Source: a virus (Duplodnaviria > Caudoviricetes). From it: 64,000 bases of DNA. The notes beneath the pieces are model-generated. The model did not search any database, had not been told where the DNA came from, and was given only the letters and a program-made list of their open reading frames with translations. The stretch is from positions 160,001 to 224,000 of the IMG/VR virus record IMGVR_UViG_3300045596_000094. One strand, given 5' to 3'. Below, in pieces: positions 12,956-50,027 of the stretch (its first letter is position 1; each line of letters opens with the position of its first letter). The translations under genes and the position numbers were made by a program.

Positions 12956-15082
12956 TTAACCGTAGAAGTTAAATGGTCGTGCTTCACCGATGTTGTAGAT
13001 TGAACCTTGAAGCTGTGAAGAAGCCTGTTGATACAAACCAGAACCTACGTTTGGATCTACCATTACAGAAGACCAATCTTGGATCGTTTGAGTGTAGACT
13101 TGTTGTTGAGAGTTTAACAAAGTATTGTTAGAGTTCAACGTGAAGCCTGTCTTCTCGATTGCTTCAACCAATGCTGTAACGAAAGCAGCAGAAAGGTCAA
13201 ATTTAGTTGTATAACCTTTTACATGTACTTCTGAGCAAAGCGCACGGAAGATACGTAGGCGGTTATCTAAACGCACCAATGGTTCTTCGATCGTAGTTAC
13301 AGTCGTAGCCAAGTAGTCCTGCACTAATTGAATATTACCAGCGGCAATGTTCAAAATAGCAAGTAAGTCTAGTTCACGTAAATCGCGGTATTCACCTTCT
13401 GGGTTTTTGTAGAAACCAGTATGGTTACGGTCACGAGTTTCACGAACAACAGGAATACCAGCTGCTGCTTCAATAGAAACACCACATTTCGCCGCGTAGA
13501 TAGAACGGAAACGACCACCCGTTAAGTTATCTGCCGCATTTACGATTGCTGCGTTTGCATTGCTACCATCAGTACCTGCAGCTTTAGCAAATACATCCAA
13601 TAACCAGCCATTAGAAGAAGCTTGTTCAATTTCTAATGTATATACTGGGCTTGGAGAAATTGCTGTTGCGATTAACTGTTGAAGTTGTTGATCAGATTCA
13701 ATAGTTAAAAGACCGGGCTGATTATCTTGAGCCAAGTGAGGAAGCTGCCAGCCCAAAGCACCAAGGTTACGTAAGTTACCACCAGTAGAACGGTTGTAGC
13801 TATCGCTCCACTGAATACCATAGCCACGGTTACGGTTCAGTGTAGTTAAGTTCGCGATACCCAATACTGCAAATTCTAAAGCAGAACCAGTCATACGTGA
13901 AACCAACTGAGTGATTGTAATACGTGGAACGTAATGGTATTGCGGTTGACCTTGTTGGAACATTGGGAAGTTGTTCGCTGCACCAAATGTTGATTGTGGA
14001 GCTGTGTATAGCAAATCTACATACGCAGCAGAATCAGTTAATTCGCGCTGAGTATTAGATTGAATCACTTGTTGCTTAGCGCTACGATACTGCATGATCA
14101 ACTTCGCAGTAATGTCAGAACGCACTGGTAAACCTGTTGCAGTGTGTTTGTCTTCATTTACAGCAAATTTACTTACGATAGAAACGTTTGGATCAGTTTT
14201 AATTTTATCCAAGTTAAATGCGTAAGCTTGGGCTTGAGGATCGCAACGACGAAGAGTAGCATCGATTGCGTCAGCAGCTTCGTTCAAGATTTTAGTTACT
14301 GTAATTTCGTCACGTACATTTGTTTGGCTGTAGATAACCTGCAGACCAGCATCAACAATGTTTGTTTCGTTTTTGTAGTAACGAGAAACTTCTTTGTGGA
14401 CCAAGTGTTTCAAATCATCTTTAAACGCATCAACCGGAGTAAGAATGATTTCAATTACATTGCCATGAACTTGCTGTGTTAAAGTTTCCAATGGTGGTCG
14501 TGAAGTTTCTAAGATCCAGCTTTGAACTGCAATTGTATTTTTGTTGTTTACTGATTGGAAAGTAGAAACAGCAAGAACAGTAAAGCTACCAGTTACCGAT
14601 TTCGGTACAACATGGAAGTTTAATACGCCTTGAGAGTTTGCACCACTAATCGTAGATTTGTCCTGAATTTCTTTTACCATTTTCAAAAGGGCAGCTGCAT
14701 CAGTATCGCCTTGGTCAGCTACTTGGAAACGTGGGTTATAATGGTCGAACATCATTTGAGCTGTGTTTGCGAAAGAGTTAGACATTGAAGGAGTCCCTTG
14801 ATATTGAGTTTGCGTTTGAGTTTGTTGAGCGTTAGTGTTATTGGTAGTAGTACGCTCCTGACTTGCTACCTTAGTTGCCTGAGCCATTGCTTGACCCATT
14901 GCCGTTTGCGGAACTGGTTCCACAACTGGAGAGACAGTTGCTTTTTCTGGAACTGGTTCAACCTTCGGTTCTGGTTGTGGCTCAGCGGTTCGTTCCTGAT
15001 GCTCGGCTTGTGCCTGAGCTTGAGCTAATGCAGCAGCATCTGCTTCACGTTGTTTCTCATTAGCTTTCTTTTGAACTGCCAT
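12956..15082 (-). CDS. chmA: Chimallin, phage nuclear shell protein (phiKZ gp54-like)
   Basis: About 700 aa; GLPVRSD, Y.PRI.IT, LRNLGALG and GFY....G..RDLRELD.LA motifs; directly upstream of the nvRNAP beta' gene; strongly biased codon use; GGAG RBS before MAVQKK at 15082. Confidence 0.88.
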   Translation of the reverse strand: MAVQKKANEKQREADAAALAQAQAQAEHQERTAEPQPEPKVEPVPEKATVSPVVEPVPQTAMGQAMAQATKVASQERTTTNNTNAQQTQTQTQYQGTPSMSNSFANTAQMMFDHYNPRFQVADQGDTDAAALLKMVKEIQDKSTISGANSQGVLNFHVVPKSVTGSFTVLAVSTFQSVNNKNTIAVQSWILETSRPPLETLTQQVHGNVIEIILTPVDAFKDDLKHLVHKEVSRYYKNETNIVDAGLQVIYSQTNVRDEITVTKILNEAADAIDATLRRCDPQAQAYAFNLDKIKTDPNVSIVSKFAVNEDKHTATGLPVRSDITAKLIMQYRSAKQQVIQSNTQRELTDSAAYVDLLYTAPQSTFGAANNFPMFQQGQPQYHYVPRITITQLVSRMTGSALEFAVLGIANLTTLNRNRGYGIQWSDSYNRSTGGNLRNLGALGWQLPHLAQDNQPGLLTIESDQQLQQLIATAISPSPVYTLEIEQASSNGWLLDVFAKAAGTDGSNANAAIVNAADNLTGGRFRSIYAAKCGVSIEAAAGIPVVRETRDRNHTGFYKNPEGEYRDLRELDLLAILNIAAGNIQLVQDYLATTVTTIEEPLVRLDNRLRIFRALCSEVHVKGYTTKFDLSAAFVTALVEAIEKTGFTLNSNNTLLNSQQQVYTQTIQDWSSVMVDPNVGSGLYQQASSQLQGSIYNIGEARPFNFYG

Positions 15083-47439: not shown

Positions 47440-47973
47440 TTATGCTTCCACTAATTCCTTAACCGTTTTAGTTTTAGCAGATGCGAGGGTGTAGCTCTTC
47501 AGATACTTTTCAGTAATCTCCAGATGACGACTACCCAAACTATTACCCCAGTCGTATTTCGGTTGACGGGGTGTTGCTACAAAAGAATCCTGATAAGAAG
47601 CAACATCAAAAGGAACTTCTATTGTAATAGCCCCACCAGGCAACCCTTCAATAACAACCAAAGCCGAAGCTGCAGTAGGCGTCCCGAATTGTTCTGGCTC
47701 TTCACCAACCTTACCATTCTTACGCCACTGATTCCAATACGGGAGTTCAGGACGAACGTAATTGAAACGTAGTGATGCTTGAACGAAAGGTGCGTTTGGT
47801 GCGTAATCTACGTCTTCACGTAGATAAACTGCGAAGTGTTTCTTCGCAGTAATGTTGGCTTGCATTTCTTCTTTTAAAGACTGGATTAAAGGGAGAACTG
47901 CTTCGCCATAAATCTTTTCAATGATCTTAGTAGCGTTATACGTTACTAGGTTCACATGGGTTTGTGTTGCCAT
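47440..47973 (-). CDS. Hypothetical protein
   Basis: 177 aa. Confidence 0.75.
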   Translation of the reverse strand: MATQTHVNLVTYNATKIIEKIYGEAVLPLIQSLKEEMQANITAKKHFAVYLREDVDYAPNAPFVQASLRFNYVRPELPYWNQWRKNGKVGEEPEQFGTPTAASALVVIEGLPGGAITIEVPFDVASYQDSFVATPRQPKYDWGNSLGSRHLEITEKYLKSYTLASAKTKTVKELVEA

Positions 47974-48748
47974 GATCCGTACCTTCAGTTTCTGTAGACT
48001 TGTCTATAGGATTTGCCTTAGCATTTTGTTTTACGCTAGGCAACATAGACTCACCCTTTAACCAATGTAATTTCAAACGTTCTGGTGAAATTTCTTGCCA
48101 ACGCCAAATCGCATTAATAGCGACATTACCCGCTTTCACACGCACACAAGGAACAGTGGTTGCAACATTAATTACTTTTGTTGGATCTTTCGGATTGATC
48201 ACTTGGTGATTTAAACACTCGTACCAACCATAGATAGTTTCACGATTAGTTTGCGCTTTAATAGCGATGCGTTCACCTTTGAAGATACGTTCAACAGGAA
48301 GAGCATCATAACGCCAATTCGGATCTTTATCGGTTTCTGGTTCGCGTTCAGCCAACGCTTCACGAGGGATAGCAGAGAAGTTATTGCGGATACCGATAAT
48401 GCCATTTTGCAAAATAAATTCCACAACATTATCTAGATTACGTTCTTGCAAAACATGGTATTCGAAATTCTCAACAAACTCATGTGTGTGCGCTACCGTT
48501 TTGATGTGCGCGTTTCGTAACGGAGCCAGTAAATTGACGATAGCGGTTTTACGCCCTTCTTCATCTAGCTCCTCACTTTTCATGATGTTGATCATGCCAT
48601 CAGTTACAACGTTCCAAGCAGCACCCAAACACTGCATTACAAAATCCGCGTTAGAAACCGGCGGGAAATAATCTTTTTGTTCTTCTGATACGTTTGGAAT
48701 TTCTTTAAAATCAGCGTCTACGATTTCTTGAGCTTTAGGGTCTAACAT
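47936..48748 (-). CDS. Hypothetical protein
   Basis: AAGGA RBS before MLDPKAQ; the longer start at 48835 would run through a terminator. Confidence 0.75.
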   Translation of the reverse strand: MLDPKAQEIVDADFKEIPNVSEEQKDYFPPVSNADFVMQCLGAAWNVVTDGMINIMKSEELDEEGRKTAIVNLLAPLRNAHIKTVAHTHEFVENFEYHVLQERNLDNVVEFILQNGIIGIRNNFSAIPREALAEREPETDKDPNWRYDALPVERIFKGERIAIKAQTNRETIYGWYECLNHQVINPKDPTKVINVATTVPCVRVKAGNVAINAIWRWQEISPERLKLHWLKGESMLPSVKQNAKANPIDKSTETEGTDHGNTNPCEPSNV

Positions 48749-48801
48749 GAGAGAGGTTTCCTTATTAATCGAGTTTAAACCATAGTAATACATGGCAATA
48801 C

Positions 48802-48866
48802 AAAAAAAAAATAGATAGAACAATATTGACCACATCGCCGAAGCGATGGGTCAAATTGGTTTGTTC
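48802..48866 (-). terminator. Intrinsic terminator
   Basis: GACC-CATCGC-UUCG-GCGATG-U-GGTC stem extended by GAACAA/TTGTTC, then a T10 tract. Confidence 0.8.
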
Positions 48867-49390
48867 ACTACTTCGTTCAGTTACCCCTAACACCTTACAT
48901 ATGGCCACTATGTCTAGAACATAGTTACTGTGTATCTTAGGCATTCATACTTTCTCAGTGTAGGGTTGATCTGTTGTCTTCTAAAAGACTATATAGAAAG
49001 AGATAACTCTTTTGTTCCCGCATTTAAGGGATTGGCTATTTATTAAGTTTTTGAAGTAGTAAGTCGTTATCTATTTTAGATATCAGTTTGACCTATACTC
49101 GTCCATACGAAATCCTCTTTTCCGCGGTACTGAGTATTTCAAAAGGTAAGCAGAAATCTTTAAATAAATGCTCCACTATTACAGGATAATAATGGAGTTT
49201 CTCCAAAGGGAAAGGTGTGTAGAACAACTCAAACATTTCACAGATACTGGGGAAGCTATAACATTCTTCCCTAAACTCATCTGCGATTGATCTAACCCCC
49301 ACACCTTCAAACACCTCGGAGAGCGCATCTAACAATCTAGATGTGATACGACCACTACCGAGTACGACTACTTGGATAGTGGTTTACCTG
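48802..49390 (-). ncRNA. Candidate large (about 580 nt) structured non-coding RNA
   Basis: More than 12 stems tile the interval, with nested multi-stem domains and one crossing 8-bp pairing; wobble pairs are G-U on the minus strand; ends in a cUUCGg hairpin plus U10. Confidence 0.6.
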
Positions 49391-49394
49391 CAAA

Positions 49395-49862
49395 TTATTT
49401 CAATAATTCAGCAGCAGCTTCAGCAATACCAGATTTGATACGGTTAATTGCAGCACCATTTTTAGTTGTTTGTTTAACAGTAGTATAACCAACAACTTCT
49501 TTGATTGTCGCTTCTTGACCTTTTTCTTTAGGTGGGATAGAAACTTGACCCACACGTTTAACAGTAACGTCAACAACAGAACTACCGATTTTAGTAGAAG
49601 CATTTACGTGAGAGAGTTCAGCATTTGTTTTTAATACGTCAAGACCTTTTGTACCGCCCGCATGTACAAAAGCTTCTTTATAAAGAACGTCGTGTTTATG
49701 TACGCCATCTGCTTGTTCAACACCAGTCTCACCAAATGTTTCTGGCAGTGTACCATTGTAGGTATCTTTGTCAGAAGCAAAAGTAAGTTCAGAGCCAGTT
49801 ACTTGGAACTGTTCTTGAAGAGATGCAGAAAGATCAAGGTAAGAAGTTTTAGCGTTAGACAT
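49395..49862 (-). CDS. Conserved, probably highly expressed early protein of phiKZ-like phages
   Basis: 155 aa, GGAG RBS, strong codon bias (GCT/GTT/ACT/AAA), early promoter at 49982-49995. Confidence 0.85.
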   Translation of the reverse strand: MSNAKTSYLDLSASLQEQFQVTGSELTFASDKDTYNGTLPETFGETGVEQADGVHKHDVLYKEAFVHAGGTKGLDVLKTNAELSHVNASTKIGSSVVDVTVKRVGQVSIPPKEKGQEATIKEVVGYTTVKQTTKNGAAINRIKSGIAEAAAELLK

Positions 49863-49981
49863 CGTGTCTACTCCAGTTTGAGATTTTAGAGAGTTTAATA
49901 AAACGTGTTACAATTACATAAGAACTACCACGCCATTTATTTTTAACGTGATAGTTGATATTTACATTACACTACATAAGG

Positions 49982-49995
49982 ATAGTGTAGATGTA
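49982..49995 (-). promoter_or_regulatory. Putative early promoter TACATCTACACTAT-N5-TG
   Basis: Motif family member; leader hairpin AACTATCACG/CGTGGTAGTT downstream. Confidence 0.55.
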
Positions 49996-50027
49996 TAATT
50001 TGTTTATCTTTGAATTTGGATATTCTT

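Follow-up and report, generated by a model that had tools for sequence, protein, structure and literature searches.

A candidate module of a small gene and a structured RNA behind a phiKZ gp186-family gene of an uncultured phage

We studied a locus at positions 48802-49995, with its flanks, in a stretch of 64,000 nucleotides (hereafter the window) from an uncultured phiKZ-like jumbo phage. The virus record from which it comes measures 269 kb and has direct terminal repeats; the window covers its bases 160001-224000. All the elements of this locus lie on the minus strand. It carries a gene for a 155-aa protein (49395-49862), followed by 646 nt without a called long gene, up to the next ATG (48746-48748). 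We found that this gap holds an unannotated small open reading frame (ORF; 49093-49377) and, behind it, a conserved non-coding RNA core of ~160 nt (48872-49034). The reading we favour, with moderate confidence, is that the two make up an accessory module of small protein and RNA, placed in the 3' untranslated region (UTR) of an early gene of essential type and belonging to a single unit that runs from promoter to hairpin. We are clearly more confident of the anatomy of the locus, i.e. of its parts as laid out below. The promoter family, the covariation of the hairpins, the coding selection on the small ORF, the covariation and strand of the core, and the presence or absence of the module among relatives were computed directly. 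The initial annotation had named features that are largely real. Yet it had parsed them wrongly, since the stretch behind the gene is a composite and not one RNA.

The support for the RNA core is evolutionary, not thermodynamic. We took orthologous loci from eight further lineages, aligned the gap after the 155-aa gene and built a covariance model (R1) from six sequences. Searches with R1 find a single copy in the genome (E = 1.6e-33) and orthologous sites in ten related loci. In the core alignment, which has 10 sequences from ~8 lineages and was fitted to the covariance model, 92.5% of the cells are paired where slid controls give 34-53%, and both sides change in 14 of the 41 pairs, compared with 1-5 in these controls. 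The covariation score is 0.202, compared with 0.024-0.082 for slid partners and 0.115 for shuffled ones, and none of 500 shuffles reaches the observed value. Conservation is far higher in this alignment than in the small ORF, and there are stops in all three frames.

In the consensus fold (RNAalifold), three short hairpins (H1, H2 and H3) precede a long, irregular hairpin domain (P4-P6), where the unpaired stretches CUGAGAAAG, UAAGGUG and CUGAACGAA are conserved. When H1-H3 were folded separately in nine lineages they recurred in all of them, with quite different stems: AAGAG/CUCUU, GUGAGA/UCUCAC and GGGUGU/ACACUC for H2, and GUCUU/AAGAC, GUUCU/AGAAC, GUACUU/AAGUAC and CAUCGA/UCGAUUG for H3. 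The H1 loop, UUAAAUGY, is nearly invariant, even in lineage L018, where the 155-aa protein is only ~35% identical. Several core pairs are G-U in most sequences and would be mismatches on the opposite strand. Because of these conserved G-U pairs, we assign the fold to the sense transcript and neither to the DNA nor to the antisense strand, and infer that the core is a structured RNA working on the sense strand. Rfam 15 returned no match in the window region at E up to 1, and in six related loci, searched up to E = 10, nothing matched consistently. No described family matches the core and, given the clear compensatory changes and the near-invariant loop, it is worth treating as a candidate new RNA family. 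Its pairing to the translation start regions of the 155-aa gene or of the downstream gene is no better than that of shuffles (z -0.9 to +1.5). Part of the core (48930-49030) and the leader and start region of the 155-aa gene (49870-49900) share short words in the same sense, as they also do in L003, L008 and L018; these include CUCUUAAAU, found in H1 of L003 and L018, and UAGACAU, found in the P6 loop and at the start of the 155-aa gene. Chance is a possible source of such words, since ~0.6 shared 7-mers are expected; that the core might be a decoy or mimic of the gene's start is a more speculative idea.

The distribution of the core follows that of the small ORF and not that of the 155-aa gene. 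The two occur together in the window clade, L002 and L018. They are both absent from the P0145, P0009 and P0011 clades, from phage RAY and from phiKZ, all five of which keep the 155-aa family gene. The P0145, P0009 and P0011 clades also keep the protease, promoter, leader and downstream genes of the locus, and their gap, of 100-130 nt, contains a hairpin, a T run and a CTATG-type motif directly after the 155-aa gene. In RAY and phiKZ the gap measures 253 and 121 nt. The RNA covariance model finds no match in the three clades, in RAY, or in 73 kb of phiKZ that include the gp182 region. Homologues of the gene are thus not generally followed by long structured gaps, as had been thought possible: the five related groups have gaps of 100-250 nt and no match to the RNA model. 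The RNA co-occurs strictly with the small ORF. On the protein tree the module is patchily distributed and needs two changes, and a single origin is also possible. The hairpin, the run of ten T (T10) and the motif TATTACTATGG at the end of the gap are present with and without the module, which makes them the conserved backbone of the region. The small ORF and the core, then, appear to have been inserted, or repeatedly lost, between the stop codon and the 3' hairpin. So far, the module is known only from metagenomic contigs. Among GenBank phages there was no match to the DNA of the locus, to the 155-aa protein or to its relative P0145, and among IMG/VR viral contigs there was none in searches with the 155-aa protein or with the RNA pattern. 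Three matches to the RNA pattern in metagenome contigs were rejected as chance, all of them being in coding regions.

The backbone behind the core starts with a GC-rich 3' hairpin with a UUCG loop (48826-48854), read from the sequence, which is the presumed end of the early transcript. Relatives have a hairpin in the same place with another sequence, e.g. GAGACAGTGC-TTCG-GCACTGATCTC. The T10 run (48802-48811) stands between this hairpin and a downstream promoter-like motif, and is invariant in relatives, including those without the insertion. The initial annotation had placed the only strong terminator of the locus ~550 nt downstream of the gene, and there is indeed a GC hairpin ~545 nt downstream with a T10 run. 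Yet the T run is 14 nt away from the hairpin and so the pair is not a canonical intrinsic terminator; neither this hairpin nor the first one after the gene has the U tract within 0-2 nt of a GC stem that defines these terminators. Phage RNA polymerases may use other termination signals (PMC11512511).

The next gene (47936-48748, ATG at 48746-48748) encodes 270 aa, matches no Pfam or PHROG family, and is syntenic in all relatives except L012. The TATG-type motif TATTACTATGG (48780-48790) lies 32 nt upstream of its ATG and is a candidate late-type promoter, a label that we take by analogy with the TATG late promoters of phiKZ. Both this motif and the arrangement of T10, 15 bases and then TATTACTATGG (48780-48811) are unique in the genome, and relatives keep both in the orthologous position whether or not they have the insertion. 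The site is a candidate locus-specific promoter or control site of the 270-aa gene. Outside the window, palindromic hairpins of the GCCCTAGGGC type are followed on both flanks and strands by TACTCTAT and then TATG (genome positions 21833/21846, 54844/54861, 111493/111508, 237072/237083, 248532/248547 and 253464/253479). These look like bidirectional terminators combined with a start motif.

The main rival to our reading builds on this 3' end. The core might be a cis-acting leader or attenuator that controls the downstream late, structural-looking genes through read-through of the UUCG hairpin, much as antitermination RNAs of phages or riboswitch-type leaders do. The order of core, hairpin, T-rich run and gene is in line with this idea, and so are the small RNAs of 201phi2-1 and phiKZ, which arise by premature termination in 5' UTRs (PMC11512511). 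It is also favoured by L012 (1002-1090), where the 3' hairpin of the RNA is directly followed by AGGAAG as ribosome-binding site, a spacer and the ATG of a different gene, with no T10 and no TATG or other promoter motif. However, in relatives without the core the same downstream gene is preceded by the hairpin, the T run and the CTATG motif. The gene does not need the core, since this front persists without it. Moreover, the core travels with the small ORF, and we found neither an alternative pairing of the antiterminator kind nor complementarity to the site where translation starts downstream (z -0.55 to +1.2). We consider a leader role unlikely.

The small ORF counts 94 codons from an ATC at 49375-49377 and ends with a TAG at 49093-49095. 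Its first canonical start, a TTG at 49333-49335, would give 80 aa. As DNA, this 5' half of the gap is poorly conserved. One might speculate that all the 550 nt are non-coding and that the open frame is a by-product of constraints on the RNA, or a former gene in decay. Four lineages have no canonical start codon before the conserved N-terminus, the body of the ORF is structured in several lineages (z down to -3.4), identity between clades at the protein level is 18-31%, and the AlphaFold2 (AF2) model of the small protein has low confidence, with a mean predicted local distance difference test (pLDDT) of 46, too low for the model to suit a fold search. But the frame, of 85-105 codons, is open in 10 of the 10 module-bearing lineages, and the other two frames are full of stops. 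Frames as long arise in shuffles in only 0.3-1.4% per lineage (p = 0.003-0.014). Close pairs differ mainly at third codon positions: between L005 and L028 the differences at positions 1, 2 and 3 number 4, 3 and 15, with a ratio of nonsynonymous to synonymous rates (dN/dS) of 0.13; the ratio is 0.36 between L003 and L004. Gene callers also found the ORF independently in three lineages. A gap without any gene in it is accordingly very improbable in our judgement, and the small ORF is best read as a protein-coding gene under purifying selection that evolves fast.

The way in which this gene would be translated is suggested by its start. The conserved N-terminus reads V-V/I-I-L-G-S-G, and the aligned start codon is AUC in the window, L012 and L013, AUU in L003 and L004, and UUG in L005, L008 and L026. 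Counted by lineage, it is UUG or GUG in four and AUC or AUU in four others. A Shine-Dalgarno-like GGU or GGUG is found in only three lineages and there is no conserved Shine-Dalgarno sequence. The start codon lies 11-17 nt past the upstream stop, within the 5' arm of a two-tier hairpin, H0 (49352-49382), that begins 12 nt after the stop codon of the 155-aa gene. This first hairpin has no U tract, in agreement with the initial annotation. H0 is predicted in 8 of the 9 folded sequences, being absent or weak in L018, and its folding z-scores range from -2.7 to -7.9 in seven lineages. Its stems differ in sequence but keep the pairing (CCACTA/TAGTGG, CTGACA/TGTCAG and CGCTGCC/GGCAGCG). The frame of the small ORF relative to the 155-aa gene is 0, +1 or +2 and differs even between the near-identical L003 and L004, a variation that excludes readthrough or frameshifting from the 155-aa gene. 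The simplest reading of the sequences is that of a translationally coupled small gene. In L005 (5700-5764) and L026 (2715-2779) the small protein ends in 33 very basic residues (KRWRRFTKRGKWRSS) that differ at a single position between the two, though the middle of the protein has strongly diverged. The version in the window is not basic.

The composite nature of the gap also bears on its folding. The 611-nt stretch folds better than its shuffles (z = -6.9), and 200-nt windows of the region reach -3.9, -4.05 and -4.4, against a mean of -1.0 (standard deviation 1.46) in a scan of 233 windows. In this sense the stretch directly after the gene is structured, as first described. But a structured RNA of ~550 nt it is not, since 49093-49377 is a conserved ORF and the non-coding core takes only ~160 nt. 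H0, lineage-specific pairings within the small ORF and the 3' hairpin account for most of the high z-scores. The antisense strand scores lower still (z = -9.6), and thermodynamic z-scores are therefore uninformative on the strand. The minimum-energy fold of the window sequence includes a long closing stem, UUACUACUUC/GAAGUAGUGA, which we discarded because other lineages do not keep it. Neither tRNA nor tmRNA genes were found.

The gene that carries the module has the strongest codon bias in the genome. We ranked the 243 ORFs of at least 120 aa in the 269-kb genome, and the 155-aa gene came first, with the lowest effective number of codons (ENC), 34.8 against a median of 50.3, and a GC content at third codon positions of 0.18. 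This agrees with the bias first noted and argues that the protein is needed in large amounts. The gene does not end in TAATAA, as had been stated, the stop context being AAA TAA TTT. The next most biased ORFs encode 739 aa (genome 105128-107347, ENC 35.8) and 708 aa (genome 172956-175082, i.e. 12956-15082 in the window, ENC 38.4), and are probably major structural or nuclear-shell-type proteins.

The 155-aa protein belongs to the family of phiKZ gp186 and RAY gp173, with significant profile similarity over most of its length. Its close homologues (53-79% identity) come from metagenomic contigs only. A profile search in 1.8 billion representatives recovered 138 cluster representatives of ~150 aa. 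RAY gp173 aligns with this profile over 138 columns (hhalign probability 98.8%, E = 9.5e-17); the match of PHIKZ186 is weaker (93.4%, E = 2.5e-7) and covers 77 columns only. In profile searches of the whole records each was the sole match, at E = 1.3e-22 for RAY gp173 and 3.3e-8 for PHIKZ186. A structure search of BFVD with the 155-aa model matched only uncharacterised jumbo-phage proteins. These results bear out the view, first put forward in the initial annotation, of a family conserved in phiKZ-like phages. PHROG gave weak matches to three families of unknown function, Pfam only noise, and the ESM Atlas scores of 0.81 at most. The phiKZ and RAY proteins resemble the 155-aa protein in size (134-165 aa) and at the profile level, but sequence identity is only ~20%. 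A prohead protease, 35-44% identical to those of phiKZ-like jumbo phages of Erwinia, Pseudomonas, Xanthomonas and Salmonella, is encoded 3 kb upstream of the locus, and Pfam Peptidase_S80 occupies the same place in relatives. RAY gp173 lies three genes after the RAY prohead protease, and the 155-aa gene and its metagenomic relatives likewise stand a few genes after theirs, but the neighbourhood of phiKZ gp186 is different. Neither RAY nor phiKZ has a small ORF or RNA core downstream of this gene.

The transcript of phiKZ gp186 is reported to be expressed early, and its antisense knockdown to reduce plaques strongly (10.1101/2024.07.31.605949), scoring +++/+++ in Table 1 of PMC12571901. Knockdown also strongly lowers the levels of ChmA (10.1101/2024.07.31.605949; PMC12571901). 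By analogy, the 155-aa gene would be an early gene of an essential-type family, and its sequence supports an abundant early protein of a phiKZ-like phage family.

This protein had been proposed to bind or chaperone the ~550-nt structured RNA of its own transcript, as a dedicated ribonucleoprotein system. In its favour, gene and RNA stand side by side and probably share a transcript. The AF2 model (mean pLDDT 74) shows two helices, another one that is long and central, a long beta-hairpin and a C-terminal helix, and thus contains both the beta-hairpin arm and the C-terminal helix that had been anticipated; the tip of the hairpin is Lys-rich (PPKEKGQEA). The model also bears a weak, non-significant likeness to the nucleic-acid-binding domains of IHF and of the DHHA1 type. 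Yet the prediction did not lead to a known fold: Foldseek found no solved structure at E <= 0.001 (IHF had E = 0.12), and a wide VIA-align search gave a best Z of 5, to DHHA1-type domains, which is unconvincing as backing for RNA binding. We dropped an HU/IHF-like reading for lack of a convincing match among solved structures. Furthermore, half of the presumed RNA is a coding ORF, and the 155-aa protein is far more conserved than the RNA. Since five related groups, including phiKZ and RAY, keep the gene without the small ORF and the RNA, an obligate pair of this protein and the RNA is unlikely, and we give little credence to the two as one system. The small protein or a host factor is the likelier partner of the core.

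The front of the unit is conserved as well. An early-type phage promoter (49972-50015) belongs, in diverged form, to the motif family TAAAnnATTTTCAnATATACAYTATnnnnTTGAAT, and its core, CTACACTAT, occupies 49982-49990. The promoter site reported at 49982-49995 is thus real, and is the core of a motif with ~20 copies. We judged the full motif present in ~20 of the 69 one-mismatch matches to the core in the 269-kb genome, all of them on the gene-sense strand. All the relatives that we examined (L002, L003, L005, L008, L015 and L017) have it ahead of their orthologous gene. Copies in the window, on the minus strand, lie at ~4907, 9908, 15164, 27121, 38366, 49990 and 52067, and ~13 more are elsewhere in the genome. 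The family is probably of the early, virion-RNA-polymerase type. We call it early because of its likeness to the phiKZ early motif, which is T-rich with an extended -10 (PMC8244752), and because of the early transcript of phiKZ gp186. Directly after several copies, e.g. at genome positions 14353 and 26316, comes a stem-loop that is rich in GC and has a UUCG loop, a hint that early transcripts carry leader hairpins at their 5' ends.

The 5' UTR of the 155-aa gene has, as first described, a leader hairpin (49924-49955); it consists of a 9-bp stem and an A-rich loop of 14 nt. Its stem shows compensatory substitutions between lineages (CTATCACG/CGTGGTAG, CTATTACG/CGTAATAG, CTATAACG/CGTTATAG and TGTAATG/CATTACA), while the loop, AAAAAT.A.T, is conserved. 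The 200-nt window that spans the leader (49801-50000) has a folding z of -4.4.

These elements suggest how the unit might work. A single transcript would run from the promoter to the UUCG hairpin. The conserved part of the unit would comprise the promoter of the repeated class, the leader hairpin that covaries and the gp186-family protein of 155 aa, expressed at a very high level. Ribosomes finishing the 155-aa gene would open H0 and restart 11-17 nt further on, at the small ORF, which is most likely translated only by coupling because its weak start lies in a hairpin near the upstream stop. At its 3' end, immediately before the UUCG hairpin, the transcript would carry the core as an RNA domain, which might serve to bind a protein as part of the mRNA or be released from this 3' end as an RNA. 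That gene and RNA form one early transcript had been proposed from the start. The layout fits this claim, with one promoter of the repeated family, no motif of this family ahead of the core or elsewhere inside the unit, and no U tract at H0; beyond the layout, we infer co-transcription, translational coupling and any function of the RNA. The most likely function of the core is to bind a protein or act as a decoy, and its partner would be the small protein inherited with it, or else a host factor; we make this suggestion tentatively. More doubtful still is a further step, in which small protein and core are a two-part protein-RNA module of an undescribed kind that has inserted itself into the 3' UTR of the most highly expressed early gene of a jumbo phage of the nucleus-forming type. 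It would act early in infection, e.g. as a decoy or sponge for an RNA-binding factor of host or phage, or as a counter-defence RNA. Such a module would borrow the promoter and the ribosomes of the gene through the hairpin-masked restart at AUC, AUU or UUG.

Several observations weigh against this account. The pair counts of the core come from few lineages in a model-fitted alignment, and taken by itself the core shows no unusual stability (z +0.2 to -2.3, depending on the lineage). The small ORF matches no Pfam, PHROG or PADLOC family, and, besides its poor model and the missing canonical starts, part of the conservation of its N-terminus may come from the hairpin itself. At the other end, the 14 bases between the 3' hairpin and T10 are of mixed composition and the terminator scan does not list the site. 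Termination at H0, processing or an internal start may take the place of a single transcript, and the arrangement in L012 fits a leader as well as a 3' UTR. The idea that small ORF and RNA are the relic of a mobile or selfish insertion without present function in the phage might explain their patchy distribution and their position between conserved genes, but it is the least probable of all, given the purifying selection on the small ORF, the compensatory changes and near-invariant loops of the RNA across lineages with 155-aa protein identity down to ~35%, the single genomic copy, and the absence of repeats and of any nuclease, integrase or reverse transcriptase in the neighbourhood.

The structured RNAs known in phiKZ-like phages are very few. 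What is new here is a candidate structured RNA motif and a hidden small gene that together look like an accessory module. The small ORF shows that a gene can hide in an apparent structured spacer. Should its AUC and AUU starts prove genuine, nature would offer here an example of a gene that is obligatorily coupled to the one upstream. The 155-aa protein, for its part, ties an uncultured phage clade to phiKZ gp186, which is among the strongest uncharacterised hits of the knockdown screen.

The comparison with known systems leaves some candidates aside. A type III toxin-antitoxin system (ToxIN-like), in which a tandem-repeat antitoxin RNA stands beside an endoribonuclease toxin, was rejected, as there is no tandem repeat in 48700-49400 and neither PADLOC nor Pfam matches the small ORF or the genes around it. 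Bacterial small RNAs derived from 3' UTRs, such as CpxQ and SroC, are closer: the core would likewise sit at the 3' end of an mRNA and share its terminal hairpin, and it has conserved unpaired stretches as possible binding sites. It differs from them in having no complementarity to neighbouring translation starts, and in that the U tract is not adjacent to the hairpin. Termination-reinitiation coupling with a hairpin-masked start is found in the coat-lysis pair of MS2 and in many bacterial operons. The small ORF resembles these textbook cases in the distance of 11-17 nt between stop and presumed restart, in a start placed inside a conserved hairpin, in a weak or absent Shine-Dalgarno sequence and in weak start codons. 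Yet AUC and AUU starts are rare, H0 might just as well stabilise the upstream mRNA at its 3' end or be a site of its processing, and coupling here is a prediction from the sequence. Among published objects, two small RNAs of giant phages found by ONT-cappable-seq come closest: sRNA005 of 201phi2-1 and the phiKZ small RNA upstream of gp182 (PMC11512511). We rejected the latter as a direct counterpart of the core, its locus not being comparable and giving no match to the model. Like the core, these RNAs are short and structured, lie next to conserved genes of phiKZ-like phages, are bounded by terminators, and are conserved between genera in position and fold (PMC11512511). But they are 5'-UTR products of premature termination upstream of a tail gene (PMC11512511), whereas the core would lie in the 3' UTR of an early operon, behind a small ORF.

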